Source: Methanothermobacter thermautotrophicus str. Delta H (GTDB lineage Archaea; Methanobacteriota; Methanobacteria; Methanobacteriales; Methanothermobacteraceae). From it: a stretch of 32,000 nt of DNA. The stretch covers positions 1,170,001 to 1,202,000 of the forward strand of contig NC_000916.1 of the NCBI RefSeq assembly GCF_000008645.1, read 5' to 3'. The position numbers and the translations under genes were made by a program. Positions 26,191 through 30,941 of this stretch are shown piece by piece (the first letter of the stretch is position 1; the number at the start of each line of letters is the position of its first letter). The notes under the pieces were generated by a model. It was not told the origin of the DNA. It made no database searches and saw only the letters and a program-made list of their open reading frames with translations.

Positions 26191-26628
26191 GTGATTGTTT
26201 TGATAATAGCAAGACCCCAGTGGTTCGGTAGAAGAAAGTACGGTGGCTGGGGAGTCTCAATAAAAACCTGGCAGGGCGCAGTATACCTTGCATGCGTATT
26301 CCTGCTGCTCGTCGGGATCCAGCTACTTCCCCTCAACACCACCACAAGGATGTATGTGACAGGTGCCTGGCTTGCATTCATGTTCCTGGACATGTTTGAT
26401 GTTATGTGGAAGGTGAAAAGGGATGAAAGGGAGTACCTCCATGAGGCCATAGCAGAAAGAAACGCCGCATGGGCCATGATGCCAGTGCTTGTAATTGGAG
26501 TGTTCATAGAACTCATCTCAAGTTCCCTGCAGGGAAAGCCCCACGTCGACCCCTTCATTTTACTTGCACTCCTTGCAGGTGTCCTTGCAAAATCCGTGAC
26601 AAACTACCGGCTGGAGAGGGAGAATTGA
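26191..26628 (+). CDS. Small integral membrane protein (DUF2178-like arrangement with a downstream XRE regulator)
   Basis: 145-aa ORF with about four hydrophobic helices. Its stop overlaps the TTG start of the HTH gene. The start is ambiguous (GTG 26191 or TTG 26200). Confidence 0.45.
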
Positions 26629-26834
26629 GGACACTAATAAGGGAACACAGGAAGGAACTCGGATTAACCCAGGAGGAACTCGCAGAGAGGGTTGGGGTAA
26701 CAAGGCAGACCATAATAGCCCTTGAGAAGGGACGTTACAGCCCCTCCCTCATCCTTGCCCACAGGATCGCAAGGGCCCTGGGAAGGGAGCATATCGAGGA
26801 TATCTTCATCCTTGATGAGGACGGTGCAAAATGA
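26625..26834 (+). CDS. XRE-family helix-turn-helix transcriptional regulator (69 aa)
   Basis: (M)[52 protein letters not shown] is a classic Cro/C1 HTH. TTG 26625 is preceded by GGAGAGGGAG and overlaps the upstream TGA. The 5' part of the tracked ORF from 26469 merely overlaps the membrane gene. Confidence 0.8.
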
Positions 26835-27421
26835 AAATGATAAGATACGGTGAAATTAAAATAAAGACCTGCGAAAACGTCTATGAACCAGCAGAGGACA
26901 CCTTCCTCCTTGCAGATAACCTGGATGTCAGGGAGGGTGATCGTGTCCTTGAAATAGGTACAGGAACAGGACTTGTTGCCATAAGAGCATCAGAGAAGGG
27001 AGATGTGACTGCAACCGATGTGAATCCCGCCGCAGTTAAGTGCACGCAGGAGAATGCCATTATCAATGGAGTTGAACTCAGGGTCCTGCAGGGGGACCTC
27101 TTTGACCCGGTTGAGGGCGAAAAATTTGACGTCATCCTCTTCAACACACCCTACCTTCCAGCCACCGGGGATGATGCCACAGGGGATGTCCTGGACCTCG
27201 CCTGGAATGGGGGCCCCGACGGCAGGATGGTTATAGACAGGTTCCTTGATGAGGTCCCGGCACACCTGAAACCTGGGGGGAGGGTCCAGCTGGTGCAGTC
27301 CTCCCTCTCCGATACAGAGAAGACCCTCCAGAAACTGGCAGATATGGGCTTTGATGCGTCGGTTACTGCAAGTGAGAGGTACTTCTTTGAGGAGATAGTC
27401 CTGATAACAGCCATGATTTAA
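26831..27421 (+). CDS. HemK-related class I methyltransferase (PrmC/Mtq2-like N5-glutamine methyltransferase family)
   Basis: SAM motif [12 protein letters not shown] and catalytic FNTPYLP (NPPY-type). ATGA overlaps the upstream HTH gene. Confidence 0.75.
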
Positions 27422-27461
27422 TAAAAAAATTTTATAACCACCACTGAGCTGGTGTGTCATG

Positions 27462-27477
27462 TTTTTCCAGTTTTTTT
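27462..27477 (+). terminator. Paired oligo-T tracts after the methyltransferase gene
   Basis: GTTTTTCCAGTTTTTTT lies about 40 nt downstream of the stop codon. Confidence 0.35.
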
Positions 27478-27508
27478 AATCGCCCATCGATTTATGGCGA
27501 GTCCCCCG

Positions 27509-27516
27509 TTTATATA
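27509..27516 (+). promoter_or_regulatory. Candidate TATA box (TTTATATA) for the C39-peptidase cassette; an alternative TAATATATAT sits at 27568-27577
   Basis: There is a consensus archaeal TATA about 90 nt upstream of ATG 27608. The second box would start transcription within a few nt of the ATG, giving a leaderless-type transcript. Confidence 0.3.
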
Positions 27517-27607
27517 CCTACTATGAAATTTTACTGTCGCCTCAAGTAATATGCTGTAGCTGATCCGTAATATATATGAGTTTTTTGTATAGAATTATTA
27601 TAAGTTA

Positions 27608-28567
27608 ATGGGAGTGTCCAAAGTGAGAGGTTTGTATATACTGTTGCTGGTCGTGCTCCTCCTCGCGGTGTCTGTTAACTCTTCAGCCGCTGCAGACAAC
27701 TGTACAGTCCTTGAAGCACAGGGGGATGATGTAGCGGGTGCACTGACCCATAATGTTACAGTGGATTCTGAGGGTGTGGTCCTCCAGACAAGGAACTACA
27801 CCTGCGGACCCGCAGCACTCGTCACCGTCCTCCAGAGACTCGGAGTGAACACCACAGAGGATGAACTCGCAGGCCTTGCCGGAACAACCGAGGACGGGAC
27901 CACCATGCAGGGCCTCCTGGAAGCCAGCAGGGCCAAGGGAGTGAACGCAACCGGCATGAAACTAAACATATCTGAACTCAAAGAAAACATGATCGCCTAT
28001 ACCATCAATGACGGCACCGGACACTACACCGTAATAAACGGAATCACCAATGACACGGTCAAACTCGCAGATCCAAGCCTCGGGAACATCGAAATGAATA
28101 TAGAAGAGTTCACTGAGATCTACAGCGGATATGCACTGGTTATAAATGATCCTAATAATCCAAGACAGGTCAACGGAACCACAGAACAAACAAATAATCA
28201 AACAGATCAAAGCAACGAGAACACCTCATCAGAAACCATAAATAACCTGACAGATACCACCTCTGATGTGCAGGCAGACAACAGAACTCTGACTGATGAG
28301 GAAATGCAGAACATTAAAGGTAAAAAATGGAGGCATAAACATTGGCATCCATGGAAGTGGCGGTGTTCTTATCATTGGCATGGTTGGTATCCTGTGCGTG
28401 TCCGTGCCTATTATGGATTCCATATAGTCTCTTATACAGCCCAAATGGTGCGCTGTGCTTGTACGCTGGATGCTGATGGCTTTGACTATTATTATGCTCG
28501 CTGTAAGACCTATGGTGATCGCTATATGGATTGGTATCGGCGCGTGGGATATAGGTATGCGGCATGA
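27608..28567 (+). CDS. Secreted C39-like cysteine peptidase fused to an N/T/Q-rich linker, a double-glycine-leader-like motif and a cationic Trp/Tyr/His-rich C-terminal module of about 80 aa (cassette 1)
   Basis: Sec-type signal (KVRGLYILLLVVLLLAVSVNSSAAA). The peptidase core has Q60-x5-C66 (LQTRNYTCGPAAL), H139 (GTGHYTVI) and D155 (KLADP). There are 13 N-x-S/T sequons in residues 1-239. The junction is LTDEEMQNIKGK (28289-28324). The tail is aa 240-319. An alternative start is GTG 27623 after GGGAGTG. Confidence 0.75.
   Translation: MGVSKVRGLYILLLVVLLLAVSVNSSAAADNCTVLEAQGDDVAGALTHNVTVDSEGVVLQTRNYTCGPAALVTVLQRLGVNTTEDELAGLAGTTEDGTTMQGLLEASRAKGVNATGMKLNISELKENMIAYTINDGTGHYTVINGITNDTVKLADPSLGNIEMNIEEFTEIYSGYALVINDPNNPRQVNGTTEQTNNQTDQSNENTSSETINNLTDTTSDVQADNRTLTDEEMQNIKGKKWRHKHWHPWKWRCSYHWHGWYPVRVRAYYGFHIVSYTAQMVRCACTLDADGFDYYYARCKTYGDRYMDWYRRVGYRYAA
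27999..28330 (+). repeat. Direct repeat copy A (3' half of the peptidase domain, the linker and the junction motif)
   Basis: By hand alignment to 29020..29348 I count 7 substitutions plus one 3-nt indel. Similarity ends abruptly just after GGTAAAAA. Confidence 0.9.
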
Positions 28568-28613
28568 AGAAATTAAGTGTGGAATATGAGTATCATTCGG
28601 AGGTATGTGAAAA

Positions 28614-28979
28614 ATGAAACGGGCATATGTCCTGCTAATTGGTTTGTCAATGCTTCTCATCTCCTTGATAGTACCATTCCCTCTAGCATTGTCCTTTGTT
28701 ATCCTGGCAGGATTATTTATCGCACATTTCAGTAAGATGGAAGAAAAAGAGGTTAACATGATTATAACAGCCACGGTATCTTTATTCATAGGATTACTGG
28801 GAGGATTACTTGGATCGATGATTCACCACAATATTTCATCAACCTGGACACTACTATCTGCTCATGGGGGACTCTTTTTAATAGCCTTAATTGGATACTT
28901 TTTCATGGTCCTAATACTGATGACATTAGGATCCATGATAGACAAGGTTATATCGAAAGCTAGATCAAAATCCCTTTGA
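28614..28979 (+). CDS. Small 4-TM membrane protein, candidate cognate immunity/protection protein of cassette 1
   Basis: 121-aa ORF with GGAGGT 9 nt upstream of the ATG. It has four hydrophobic helices and lies 46 nt downstream of the cassette-1 gene. I recognise no family. Confidence 0.65.
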   Translation: MKRAYVLLIGLSMLLISLIVPFPLALSFVILAGLFIAHFSKMEEKEVNMIITATVSLFIGLLGGLLGSMIHHNISSTWTLLSAHGGLFLIALIGYFFMVLILMTLGSMIDKVISKARSKSL

Positions 28980-29006
28980 GTTTCCGCAGACCCCACCACA
29001 ACATCA

Positions 29007-29576
29007 ATGACACCAGAAGATACCATCAATGACGGCACCGGACACTACACCGTAATAAACGGAATCACCAATGACACGGTCAAACTCGCAGATCCAAGCC
29101 TCGGGAACATCGAAATGAATATAGAAGAGTTCGCTGAGATCTACAGCGGATATGCACTGGTTATAAATGATCCCAATAATCCACAGGTCAACGGAACCAC
29201 AGAACAAACAAATAATCAAACAGATCAAAGCAACGAGAACACCTCATCAGAAACCATAAATAACCTGACAGATACCGCCTCTGCTGTGAAGGCAGACAAC
29301 AGAACTCTGACTGATGAGGAAATGAAGAACATTAAAGGTAAAAACTGGAAGTACAGGTTAAATCAAAGGTTAAAGAGACAGGGAAGATGGAAAAGAAATG
29401 CATGGTACAACCGAAGCTTTAACTGGTGGAGAGTCTACTATGGAGGTGCCTGGGTCTGTGTAGCACCAGGTTACACAAATCATCCCGTGGGTAAGCTTTT
29501 TGGTTTCTTAGGGACAGTTTATCTAGGCACCGTGGGAACAGCGCATCTTAACGAAGGGTGGTGGACATATACCTGA
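29007..29576 (+). CDS. N-terminally truncated paralog (orphan module). It has no signal peptide and no catalytic Cys, keeps the His/Asp half of the peptidase domain, the linker and the junction motif, and carries a different cationic Trp-rich tail (cassette 2)
   Basis: 189-aa ORF. Homology to cassette 1 begins at TINDGTGHYTV. The junction is LTDEEMKNIKGK (29307-29342). The tail NWKYRLNQRLKRQGRWKRNAWYNRSFNWWR...GKLFGFLGTVYLGTVGTAHLNEGWWTYT follows. No SD precedes ATG 29007, so independent expression is uncertain. Confidence 0.55.
   Translation: MTPEDTINDGTGHYTVINGITNDTVKLADPSLGNIEMNIEEFAEIYSGYALVINDPNNPQVNGTTEQTNNQTDQSNENTSSETINNLTDTASAVKADNRTLTDEEMKNIKGKNWKYRLNQRLKRQGRWKRNAWYNRSFNWWRVYYGGAWVCVAPGYTNHPVGKLFGFLGTVYLGTVGTAHLNEGWWTYT
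29020..29348 (+). repeat. Direct repeat copy B
   Basis: It pairs with 27999..28330 at an offset of 1,021 bp, in the same orientation. Confidence 0.9.
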
Positions 29577-29645
29577 CATTTAATTTTATTTTTATGAAAT
29601 AGGAGGAGTATCTAGGATATAAGTGAAAAACATGAAAAAATAATA

Positions 29646-29957
29646 ATGTTACTCCTGTCTGTAGTCTTTTTTGGGATTTTTTTATACATAGAATTTAATT
29701 TTTTCCAATACTCAGAGTTAAGATTGTTAATGTTCATGTTAATTGTACTAACTCTTTATGGATATGCCAGACTTCAAAGTATCTATGATACCCCCGCAAG
29801 AAGATTAAAACTTTTGTTTTACACAATAGTTCTGGCTTTATTATTTTATATAGTAATACTAACCCGGCAGCCAGCGTTACTAAGAAATACCATGACTATA
29901 GTGACTATAGCGGCGTTAATTCTACTTGCATTTGATAAAAAAGAGAAGGTGAAATAG
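29646..29957 (+). CDS. Small 4-TM membrane protein, candidate cognate immunity protein of cassette 2
   Basis: 103-aa ORF with four hydrophobic helices and very AT-rich coding sequence. It shows no similarity to the cassette-1 membrane protein. There is no SD at ATG 29646. An upstream ATG (29632) followed by A6 is out of frame by one base. Confidence 0.5.
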   Translation: MLLLSVVFFGIFLYIEFNFFQYSELRLLMFMLIVLTLYGYARLQSIYDTPARRLKLLFYTIVLALLFYIVILTRQPALLRNTMTIVTIAALILLAFDKKEKVK

Positions 29958-29959
29958 CC

Positions 29960-30410
29960 AACATAATAGTTATCGACAGATGAGACTAACCCTAACTAAA
30001 TGAAAGTGTTGAAGTTGCAGATCCAAGGAAAAAGATAGACAATTAACACCCCCACAATTTCCAAGAGATTTACAGGCTACACTACTGTAATCAACCAAGA
30101 AACAGATGACATTCCGGCCGTGGACAGCGCAGCTCAAACCAGCACTTAAAACAACCCTAACCAAAGAGAAAATGCAGAACATCAAGGGTAAAGGTGAAGG
30201 TTATTCCTTCAAGATCGAAGTTTTTTCACTCTTTGTCTTGGGTGTTTCCTTGGTCTTACATTCATCTTATACGTGACATTAAGAAGAGAGTTCCGAAAGC
30301 AGGAGACATCGGTTTGTTCATAGCAAACATCTCATGCTCTTTTAAGTATTCCGCAAACACATCTAATTGTCTGCTCTGCATGCTAGATTGGATATAGATA
30401 TGCAGCATAA
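29960..30410 (+). pseudogene. Decayed third copy of the peptidase 3' half, linker, junction and tail (cassette 3 remnant)
   Basis: The translation fragments NIIVIDR*D*P*LNESVEVADPRKKIDN*HPHNFQEIY align to HYTVINGITNDTVKLADPSLGNIEMNIEEFTEIY. A frameshifted GYTTVINQ aligns to GYALVIND. The junction LTKEKMQNIKGK is at 30157-30192. The 3' end GGATATAGATATGCAGCATAA (30390-30410) matches the cassette-1 3' end GGATATAGGTATGCGGCATGA (28547-28567) at 18/21 positions. Confidence 0.6.
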
Positions 30411-30468
30411 ACTTTTATGGGGTTCATTTTATTCCACATATATTAAAACTAGGCGTGGGTGAAGGAAG

Positions 30469-30660
30469 ATGCGGGTTTGTGTGTCATCCTGAACAGTCTT
30501 ACTTTCCTTAGGGGAGATATTTAATGTATTCCTTAGAGCTGTTTGATGCTCTTTCCCTTTGTGGCTTGTCATAGCCGGCTATTTTATTGCACGTTTCAGC
30601 GAAAAAATAGAAAAGACATGGTAATAGTGGCTATGGTATGTCTTTCACTGCATGAGTAGA
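30469..30660 (+). pseudogene. Decayed homolog of the cassette-1 4-TM protein gene
   Basis: ATGCGGG at 30469 parallels ATGAAACGGG at 28614. The fragment LVIAGYFIARFSEKIEKTW** followed by frameshifted DMVIVAMVCLSL aligns to FVILAGLFIAHFSKMEEKEVNMIITATVSLF. It is interrupted by stops and a frameshift. Confidence 0.5.
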
Positions 30661-30941
30661 TTACTCATAGCACTAATAATAAATATCCCCTCTTAAAAAG
30701 CTTTTCGAGACAAAAACCGCTGAAAAATTGAAGTGTTATTAAGATGCACAATATTATAACCCAACTTTAGGAAAGGAACCAGACATCACGGATGCTCTCA
30801 CATGGAACAGTGAGAGACGCATGTTACCCCGACCCAGAAATCAAACAATATTGGAGATCCCCAAGTGGATCCCCTGATAAAACCAGGCCCCTACCATTTT
30901 TCAAGGATTTGAAAAATGAATTATAGGACCTTTTAAACCGT

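Follow-up and report, generated by a model that had tools for sequence, protein, structure and literature searches.

A putative self-processing archaeocin precursor with swappable tails and cognate membrane-protein genes in Methanothermobacter thermautotrophicus

We analysed a 32,000-nt stretch of the Methanothermobacter thermautotrophicus str. Delta H chromosome (hereafter the window; coordinates count from its first letter and the features of the array lie on the + strand) and put at roughly 58% the probability that an array of genes within it encodes a polymorphic, Sec-exported, self-processing archaeocin precursor, together with cognate immunity genes and silent spare cassettes. The array is headed by a full-length precursor gene (open reading frame (ORF) 1, 319 aa; 27608..28567), followed by a gene for a 121-aa protein with four transmembrane (TM) segments (ORF2; 28614..28979), an orphan cassette (ORF3, 189 aa; 29007..29576), a gene for a second four-TM protein (ORF4, 103 aa; 29646..29957) and the decayed head of a third cassette (about 29990..30192). 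All ORFs listed in a first-pass annotation of this DNA were found again at the same positions. The ORF1 protein comprises, in order, a Sec-type signal peptide read from the sequence (MGVSKVRGLYILLLVVLLLAVSVNSSAAA, about aa 1-29; 27608..27694), a Peptidase C39 domain (aa 57-183; 27776..28156), a disordered N/T/Q-rich linker of about 45 residues that is dense in N-glycosylation sequons (aa 184-227; 28157..28288), a double-glycine (GG)-type leader motif (LTDEEMQNIKGK, aa 228-239; 28289..28324) and an 80-aa tail (tail A; 28325..28564), which is cationic, aromatic and contains four cysteines, and is the predicted released product. The signal, the linker, the cationic aromatic tail of about 80 aa and the adjacent 121-aa four-TM gene had all been recognised correctly by the first-pass annotation, which missed that the junction between conserved part and tail is a double-glycine-type leader motif. 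Archaeocins have been described from haloarchaea and Sulfolobales, and we know of no antimicrobial peptide system characterised in methanogens; the locus probably represents a previously undescribed kind of archaeal antimicrobial-peptide system.

Judged by sequence and predicted fold, the C39 domain of ORF1 is a true double-glycine peptidase. It matched Pfam Peptidase_C39 (PF03412) with E=9e-34 and 116.6 bits (cut-off 22) over profile positions 4-132 of 133. The previously proposed Cys/His/Asp core was upheld, with C66 (checked codon 27803-27805), H139 (28022-28024) and D155 (28070-28072) aligning with the catalytic triad of PCAT1, ComA and LahT, and Q60 (27785) corresponding to the oxyanion Gln. 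In the PCAT1 chain with a Cys-to-Ala mutation, the alanine falls into the alignment column of C66. Across the family, D155 never varies, and conservation of Q60, C66 and H139 is at least 90%. The best sequence matches of ORF1 in the PDB were likewise PCAT1, LahT and ComA with E-values of about 1e-10 (PCAT1 2.6e-10, over the full length). An AlphaFold2 (AF2) model built on 62 homologues reached a predicted local distance difference test (pLDDT) score >90 in the C39 core, and a Foldseek comparison against the PDB returned ComA, PCAT1 and LahT as all of its 22 best matches (root-mean-square deviation 1.6-2.5 Å, 26-28% identity; target-normalised TM-score 0.74-0.82 for isolated peptidase-domain entries). 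Pfam and NCBIfam searches found no ABC transmembrane or ATPase domains in the 319-aa ORF1 protein, which NCBIfam PCAT models match in the peptidase segment only and far under cut-off.

Alignment of the family revealed a conserved C39 core, a variable linker and then renewed conservation at the motif L-[TS]-x-E-E-M-Q-N-I-K-G-[KR], variants of which are present in nearly every member and after which all similarity stops. G238 is invariant and L228, E231, E232, M233 and I236 are at least 90% conserved. The resulting register, with L at -12, E at -8, M at -7, I at -4 and G at -2, is that of bacterial double-glycine leaders; LahT needs hydrophobic leader residues at -4, -7 and -12, which dock in pockets of its C39 domain (PMC10885120). 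With a position-specific scoring matrix (PSSM) made from 15 classical bacterial leaders of the literature, the motif 12-mer was the top site in ORF1 and, in the same register, in 48 of the 62 homologues. Its score of 19.9 bits was reached by the motif alone among the 39,432 six-frame 12-mers of the window (99.9th percentile, 7.4). The motif further gave repeated NCBIfam matches, all below threshold, to the GG-leader bacteriocin models TIGR01847, TIGR03949, NF038034, NF047798 and TIGR03893. It sits internally in ORF1 (aa 228-239), C-terminal to the peptidase, whereas a classical leader opens a small precursor exported by a PCAT. When leader plus tails were run as a profile over the PDB sequences, the sole match was PBP3, by chance.

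In the AF2 model, the motif forms a helix (230-235) and a strand (237-238) at pLDDT 73-92, and pLDDT is <50 for the linker (aa 187-223) and most of the tail. A homologue from Methanothermus fervidus that is 44% identical behaves alike, its motif block being modelled at pLDDT 92 with a helix at 210-214 and a strand at 217-218. Since a short segment amid disorder is normally modelled with confidence only if packed, we infer that the motif docks on the C39 domain. From sequence and model, the ORF1 peptidase appears to be fused to its own substrate, with cleavage predicted after K239. The first-pass annotation had likened the cassette layout to that of polymorphic toxins with the C39 domain as the delivery part; the sharp junction, the co-variation and the orphans (below) support the likeness, but as the junction is a double-glycine-type leader, which a C39 domain would be expected to recognise, this domain is more likely the releasing peptidase.

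Three variations on the leader theme were seen among the homologues. The 95-aa metagenomic protein P0083 consists of a 27-residue N-terminal leader ending LSTEEMQKIIGK and, directly thereafter, tail B, which is the layout of a classical stand-alone double-glycine precursor; by its sequence it may be an orphan or a substrate processed in trans. Second, some homologues (P0019, P0025, P0030, P0035, P0037-P0039, P0056, P0057, P0067 and P0085, and not ORF1 of the window) carry another motif, [ML]-x-[VIL]-[KR]-G-[KR]-G (e.g. DPMAVKGKG), 10-20 residues past the signal peptide. Similar to the closing part of the leader motif, it is a possible second auto-cleavage site that would free the peptidase from an N-terminal anchor. 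Lastly, in the Methanobacterium-type proteins P0037, P0039, P0041 and P0043 two leader-like motifs stand in tandem before the tail (e.g. LTDKEMESIKGQ...LTSEMMESIRGR), an arrangement that suggests two-step processing or release of an extra short peptide.

The charge distribution along the precursor is strongly asymmetric: the mature N-terminal part of ORF1 has an isoelectric point (pI) of 4.1 and a net charge of -21, tail A a pI of 9.6 and a charge of +9, and tail B of the orphan cassette a pI of 10.4 and a charge of +10. Every one of the 48 distinct tails in the family is net positive (median +6), at lengths of 27-180 aa. ORF1 contains 13 N-glycosylation sequons as compared to 3.7±1.7 in shuffled sequences, all of them before the tail and five within the linker (aa 189, 197, 205, 213 and 225). 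This enrichment, together with the N-terminal hydrophobic signal, argues that the protein is extracellular. The N-terminus is modelled by AF2 as a helix (H6-25), and signal-peptide cleavage is predicted at about aa 29; an alternative GTG start at 27623 is the one used by homologues. Homologues of tail A follow the same motif in Methanobacteriaceae metagenome-assembled genomes (MAGs), and a word-indexed search with tail A retrieved one protein, P0082, which is an intact orphan of type F. For tail B, a search of 1.8 billion representative proteins returned three real homologues, each behind the same motif, and none outside the C39-tail family. The tails are mosaic, in that KWRHKHWHPWKWRCSYHW heads tails A and F alike.

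Each tail is coupled to its own membrane-protein gene. ORF2 and ORF4, the predicted immunity proteins A and B, belong to no Pfam or NCBIfam family and, as had been noted before, have four hydrophobic segments each and are unrelated to each other. Among 21 distinct tail-partner pairs, 23 comparisons were alike in both tail and partner and 182 in neither, with few exceptions (two alike in the tail only, weakly, and three in the partner only); one partner call, c17, proved to be a spurious ORF lying antisense to dapF and was dropped from the comparison. Tails of types A, B, C and F are each tied to one partner family, both in Methanothermobacter and in distant Methanobacteriaceae, and the ORF2 family accompanies A-type tails across genera at 62-65% identity. 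Within Methanothermobacter, cores are 82-94% identical and tails unrelated; between genera, cores are 51-61% and tails of the same type 60-88% identical, and in one such case the core reaches 54.9%, the tail 87.5% and the partner 89.9%. At the sequence level, tail and partner are thus exchanged horizontally as a module. In one locus (L017), a premature stop shortens the tail while the partner gene is intact.

The downstream cassette consists of the C-terminal half of the C39 domain, the linker, the leader motif (LTDEEMKNIKGK; 29307-29342) and tail B (29343-29573). ORF3 matches positions 84-132 of the C39 profile only, i.e. the C-terminal third, and accordingly lacks the signal peptide and the catalytic Cys. 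Its conserved part lies in a repeat: copy 1, covering the 3′ half of the C39 domain, the linker and the leader of ORF1 (27999..28331), and copy 2 within ORF3 (29020..29349) are 97-99% identical and 1,018-1,021 bp apart, and identity stops 7 nt past the Gly-Lys codons. The earlier picture of an orphan with a near-identical conserved part and a different tail therefore holds. Several assemblies have the window layout at the same site, from the methyltransferase gene to dapF. Others (L024-L026) have a full-length gene with tail B, followed directly by the B-type membrane gene, and correspond to the window minus exactly one 1,018-bp repeat unit. Comparing this locus across strains thus yields no single invariant tail: some strains have tail A plus orphan B, others tail B. 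Window segments 26807-28331 and 29020-31000 both align to L024 and overlap on its single repeat copy, which argues that homologous recombination over the 333-bp repeat interconverts an "A expressed, B orphan" and a "B expressed" state.

Orphans occur in the window and in nine further loci (L002, L003, L005, L006, L008, L009, L017, L027 and L028), some of them from Methanobacteriaceae MAGs, in which full-length genes are found together with orphans. Methanothermobacter sp. KEPCO 2 has three full-length cassettes in tandem. The window array is no chance arrangement, since the complete Methanothermobacter chromosome CP064324.1 is 100% identical over positions 26800-31000 and five or more other assemblies share the layout. 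Arrays are also found elsewhere on the chromosome, at L016 4307-9371 (KEPCO 2) and, as a second site, in L017 (CP064337.1). One site lies between trp genes and hypC, another between thrE and a gene with a metallo-beta-lactamase fold, and a full-length D cassette duplicated in tandem is among the cassettes of these arrays. As the chromosomal sites differ between strains, arrays move or arise independently.

The first-pass annotation had counted a third copy of the same kind, riddled with stops and followed by a decayed homologue of ORF2. A decayed C39 3′ fragment with stops and a leader (LTKEKMQNIKGK; 30157-30192) is indeed present at about 29990..30192, and it matches the head of an intact orphan in other strains (29990-30192; E=2.5e-17; third-cassette repeats D3 and D4, 76-78% identity). 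What follows is not the remainder of a single copy. As far as 30192, identity to the window is 98.9% for metagenomic contig L027 and 97.4% for L028; both contigs then continue with an intact tail F, its own 114-aa four-TM gene and a D-type orphan. In the window, the leader motif is joined straight to a fragment (30199..30383) that matches the 112-aa partner of tail D from KEPCO 2 (tblastn E=3e-13) and contains a frameshift and a stop. Given the comparison with L027 and L028, the third copy is best read as a deletion product in which the cassette F leader abuts the middle of a D-type partner pseudogene. Of the decayed ORF2 homologue there is a weak, tentative A-type fragment (30553..30615; tblastn E=7e-4, 50% identity over 24 aa), and the main remnant is D-type. 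The peptide IGYRYAA encoded at 30387-30407 was considered as a remnant of the end of tail A and dropped as too short (E about 0.02).

Searches for relatives (E<=1e-3) gave 81 homologues, essentially from Methanobacteriales (Methanothermobacter, Methanothermus and Methanobacterium/Methanobacteriaceae MAGs), and a scan of genome contigs gave 10 relevant loci. C39 genes of Helicobacter and Campylobacteraceae returned by the contig search are unrelated to the cassette system. Two C39 proteins, P0047 and P0061, have PD40 (PF07676) beta-propeller repeats in place of a short cationic tail, from which it follows that the secreted C39 module is also used in large surface proteins. Partner genes vary in form as well. 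In M. fervidus CP002278.1, the C39-tail gene is followed by a 255-aa multi-pass membrane protein of the SpoIIM family (PF01944; L030 6845-7612), the L008 partner has 266 aa and seven TM segments, and downstream of a tail-F′ precursor a 248-aa protein (L029 1064-1810) is an apparent fusion of F-type and C-type partners, i.e. of two immunity-like modules. Three very Trp-rich tails of the K_DeepCast Methanobacteriota MAG (L004, L005 and L006) have no detectable similarity to one another, and their partners, of 150-163 aa with one N-terminal TM helix and a soluble beta-rich domain, form one family; here, the partner is conserved and the tail has diverged.

The array neighbours are housekeeping genes, and G+C content is 39% in the variable part of the locus as compared to 49-52% in the conserved part of ORF1 and the flanks. 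The promoter search was restricted to a TATA-box pattern, a sigma-70 promoter/terminator scan having been set aside because the host is archaeal. The intergenic region 5′ of ORF1 contains a single perfect archaeal TATA-box-like element, TTTATATA (27509..27516), a candidate promoter for ORF1 and possibly for the whole array. A GGAGGT Shine-Dalgarno (SD) sequence precedes ORF2. Directly upstream of the methyltransferase gene, the gene of a 145-aa membrane protein overlaps one encoding a 69-aa XRE-type helix-turn-helix (HTH) protein (26191-26834), and this pair is kept in all strains compared, whatever the cassette type. No type V, VI or VII secretion system (T5SS, T6SS, T7SS), Rhs element or long repeat stalk was found at the locus; the only export signal is of the Sec type.

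In the model that we favour, ORF1 would be exported via Sec and probably N-glycosylated, as an anionic C39 domain tethered by the flexible 45-residue linker to the leader helix LTDEEMQNIKGK and the 80-aa cationic peptide beyond it. Outside the cell, in the reducing surroundings typical of methanogens, the peptidase would bind the leader in its own groove or in that of a sister molecule and cut after Gly-Lys, freeing the cationic tail. The peptide may then hit competing Methanobacteriales, probably at the membrane, with the adjacent small membrane protein shielding the producer. The downstream orphan cassettes, being without signal peptide and catalytic Cys, would be silent spares, their partner genes could maintain immunity to the peptides of neighbours, and recombination over the 333-bp repeat would change which tail is expressed. 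Several elements of this scheme, namely cleavage itself and its position, action in cis or in trans, toxicity and the immunity role of the membrane proteins, are predictions. It draws on features that can be read directly: the architecture, the C39 fold and catalytic residues, the conserved leader-like motif and its confident AF2 modelling, the A/B swap between strains, tail-partner co-variation, modular horizontal exchange and the positive charge of all tails. Whether these loci also constitute an undescribed class of ribosomal antimicrobial peptides of Methanobacteriales, defined by Sec-exported autoprocessing precursors, a C39 P1 preference shifted to Lys/Arg, an own leader, a swappable cationic toxin, membrane immunity genes and recombination-switched silent arrays, we regard as evenly balanced.

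Several observations speak against the archaeocin model. The best score against TIGR01847 was 14.0 bits at a cut-off of 15.7, and no family member passes. In essentially all members, K, R or Q occupies position -1, where characterised double-glycine peptidases accept G, A or S. Docking of the motif at the active site is deduced from the pLDDT pattern and secondary structure. Eight of the 48 tails resemble plain TM anchors with basic ends and, by their sequence, suit the role of a membrane anchor no less well than that of a toxin; in Pfam and NCBIfam, tails and partners match no known toxin, bacteriocin or immunity family. Finally, the SD-coupled ATG of ORF4 is TAG in the window (29612-29614). 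This codon is ATG, giving a 114-aa protein, in L018, L023, L024, L025 and L028, and TAG in the window, L019, L020, L022 and L027. With the AGGAGG-coupled codon (region 29595-29646) being TAG, the window ORF4 starts only at the internal ATG at 29646, which lacks an SD sequence; the 103-aa reading frame described earlier is therefore correct as an ORF of the window and falls short of the 114-aa form of other strains.

Four other explanations, each accounting for fewer observations than the archaeocin model, were weighed. The tail could be an anchor, or a self/non-self recognition ligand that binds the cognate membrane protein of its own or a kin cell, rather than a toxin, with the leader-like motif acting as an autoinhibitory pseudo-substrate or a shedding site. 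Tail-partner co-variation would be equally expected of a ligand-receptor pair, the TM-anchor-like tails with basic C-termini (8/48, e.g. P0033, P0052 and P0066) and the PD40 surface repeats that replace short tails in some relatives (P0047, P0061) fit well, and self/non-self recognition is compatible with such polymorphism. Yet plain anchoring does not predict silent orphans, tail switching by homologous recombination, horizontal exchange of tail and partner or a partner kept after tail loss, and cationic tails throughout, opposed to an anionic pro-part, are typical of antimicrobial peptide precursors. We consider this explanation unlikely. Still less probable is a peptide pheromone system, in which the released tail would be a signal like ComC, BlpC or PlnA and the membrane protein would help in sensing it. 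GG-type leaders precede pheromones too, a pheromone has been named as an alternative for an archaeal C39 locus (PMC6393860), and the conserved pair of HTH and small membrane protein genes lies just upstream (26191-26834). That pair, however, is invariant whatever the cassette type, the partners, membrane proteins of 100-170 aa, contain no kinase or other signalling domain, tails of 27-180 aa are far beyond known pheromone lengths, and pheromone loci are not known for orphan arrays or for swapping between strains.

The remaining two explanations make the C39 domain the effector. The first-pass annotation had offered a secreted pseudomurein cysteine peptidase with variable wall-binding tails, and a precedent exists in PeiR, a prophage enzyme from a methanogen virus that acts on pseudomurein as a C39-type endoisopeptidase (PMC6189367; PDB 8Z4H); an extracellular ORF1 protein would suit this role. 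But PeiR matched ORF1 with E=0.086 over half of the domain (aa 9-74 of the domain), as opposed to 2.6e-10 over the full length for PCAT1, it was not among the 50 best structural matches of the ORF1 model in Foldseek, and Pfam found no pseudomurein-binding repeat in ORF1. The GG-leader motif, the tail-specific membrane partners and the orphan cassettes would moreover be left unexplained, and we hold a wall peptidase to be as improbable as a pheromone. Alternatively, the C39 domain itself might be the toxin, as in the CdiA-like StbD-CT, with the tails as targeting or entry modules. C39-family toxin domains are known from polymorphic toxins (Tox-PL-C39, PMC3482391; StbD, bioRxiv 10.64898/2026.05.07.723447), and Foldseek matched ORF1 to 8ssk with E=7.7e-6. 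Polymorphic toxins vary in the toxin part, though, whereas here the C39 domain is conserved and the partner co-varies with the tail; the orphans lack the catalytic Cys, and the partners are membrane proteins rather than soluble peptidase inhibitors. This makes a C39 toxin highly improbable, the least credible of the four.

In the literature searched, we found no description of a peptidase-leader-payload fusion or of its cassette switching, although a prior account in surveys of archaeal toxins is possible. A locus of an archaeon in which GG-leader genes stand separately beside a C39 peptidase has been discussed as possibly bacteriocin-like (PMC6393860), and unrelated C39-like wall-associated enzymes of methanogens have been described (PMC6189367, PMC13642728). 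In subsurface Methanobacterium single-cell genomes, a "Peptidase C39" gene and its neighbourhood diversify among strains (PMC8115248), which a cassette system would explain. The arrangement proposed here would join double-glycine leader processing and polymorphic-toxin cassette switching in a new way, on one Sec-exported chain. If correct, methanogens would have their first archaeocins, and these would offer a natural source of inhibitors specific to methanogens; such inhibitory peptides, if they exist, would be relevant to biogas reactors and methane mitigation. Peptide warfare among methanogens could be put to a direct test in M. thermautotrophicus Delta H-type strains, for which genetic tools exist, and the locus allows C39 function outside an ABC transporter, with Lys/Arg at P1, to be addressed.

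Among known systems, class II bacteriocins and related ribosomally synthesised and post-translationally modified peptides (PCAT1, ComA, LahT) are closest in their parts. They share with ORF1 a homologous peptidase with the same Q/C/H/D residues, an amphipathic leader helix with hydrophobic residues at -4/-7/-12, Glu at -8 and Gly at -2, and a cationic product of 30-100 aa encoded next to a small membrane protein that is presumed to be the immunity factor. [quoted passage not shown] Signal-peptide-bearing C39 peptidases without an ABC transporter are also represented by FapD of the Pseudomonas functional amyloid system and by FilB, and ORF1 has weak NCBIfam similarity to NF058616 (E=1.7e-7) and NF050078 (E=6.7e-10), both far under cut-off. 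The substrates of FapD and FilB are encoded separately, however, and variable tails, orphan cassettes and a cognate membrane partner are absent from these systems. Halocin C8, attributed to Sun et al. 2005, is reportedly a Cys-rich archaeal antimicrobial peptide (about 76 aa) excised from the C-terminal end of a secreted pro-protein some 280 aa long. The likeness is confined to the principle of freeing a peptide from the C-terminus: ProC8 reportedly has an immunity protein, not a peptidase, as its N-terminal part, it is exported by Tat and is not known to have a GG leader, and the halocin C8 family gave no match to the ORF1 system (Pfam E<=1, NCBIfam E<=10).

In its genetic organisation, the array is reminiscent of polymorphic toxins such as the CdiA-CT/CdiI pairs of contact-dependent inhibition (CDI), Rhs and related systems, which include orphan CT-immunity modules and releasing peptidases (Zhang et al. 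2012, PMC3482391); with these it shares a conserved N-terminus, a sharp junction, a variable C-terminus, a co-varying downstream gene, 5′-truncated orphans that retain the junction region and switching between strains. It departs from them on several points: its payloads are short cationic peptides in which no enzymatic toxin domain can be recognised, the partner genes encode membrane proteins, Sec is the sole export route (T5SS, T6SS, T7SS, Rhs and filamentous repeats are all absent), the C39 releasing peptidase makes up essentially the whole conserved module, and the host is an archaeon. The nearest parallel in mechanism is StbD-CT, a CdiA-like protein of Citrobacter rodentium, whose C39 domain has been demonstrated experimentally to auto-process the chain in cis, at a Gly-Gly of its flexible linker, when conditions are reducing (bioRxiv 10.64898/2026.05.07.723447). 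Like ORF1, it combines a C39 domain and a GG cleavage site in one chain via a flexible linker in a polymorphic-toxin context. In StbD-CT, however, the C39 domain is the toxin, which cleaves GyrB and ParE, it lies C-terminal to the cleavage site, and the immunity protein binds the peptidase; in ORF1, by contrast, the conserved N-terminal module is formed by the peptidase, and the presumed payload is the variable tail.

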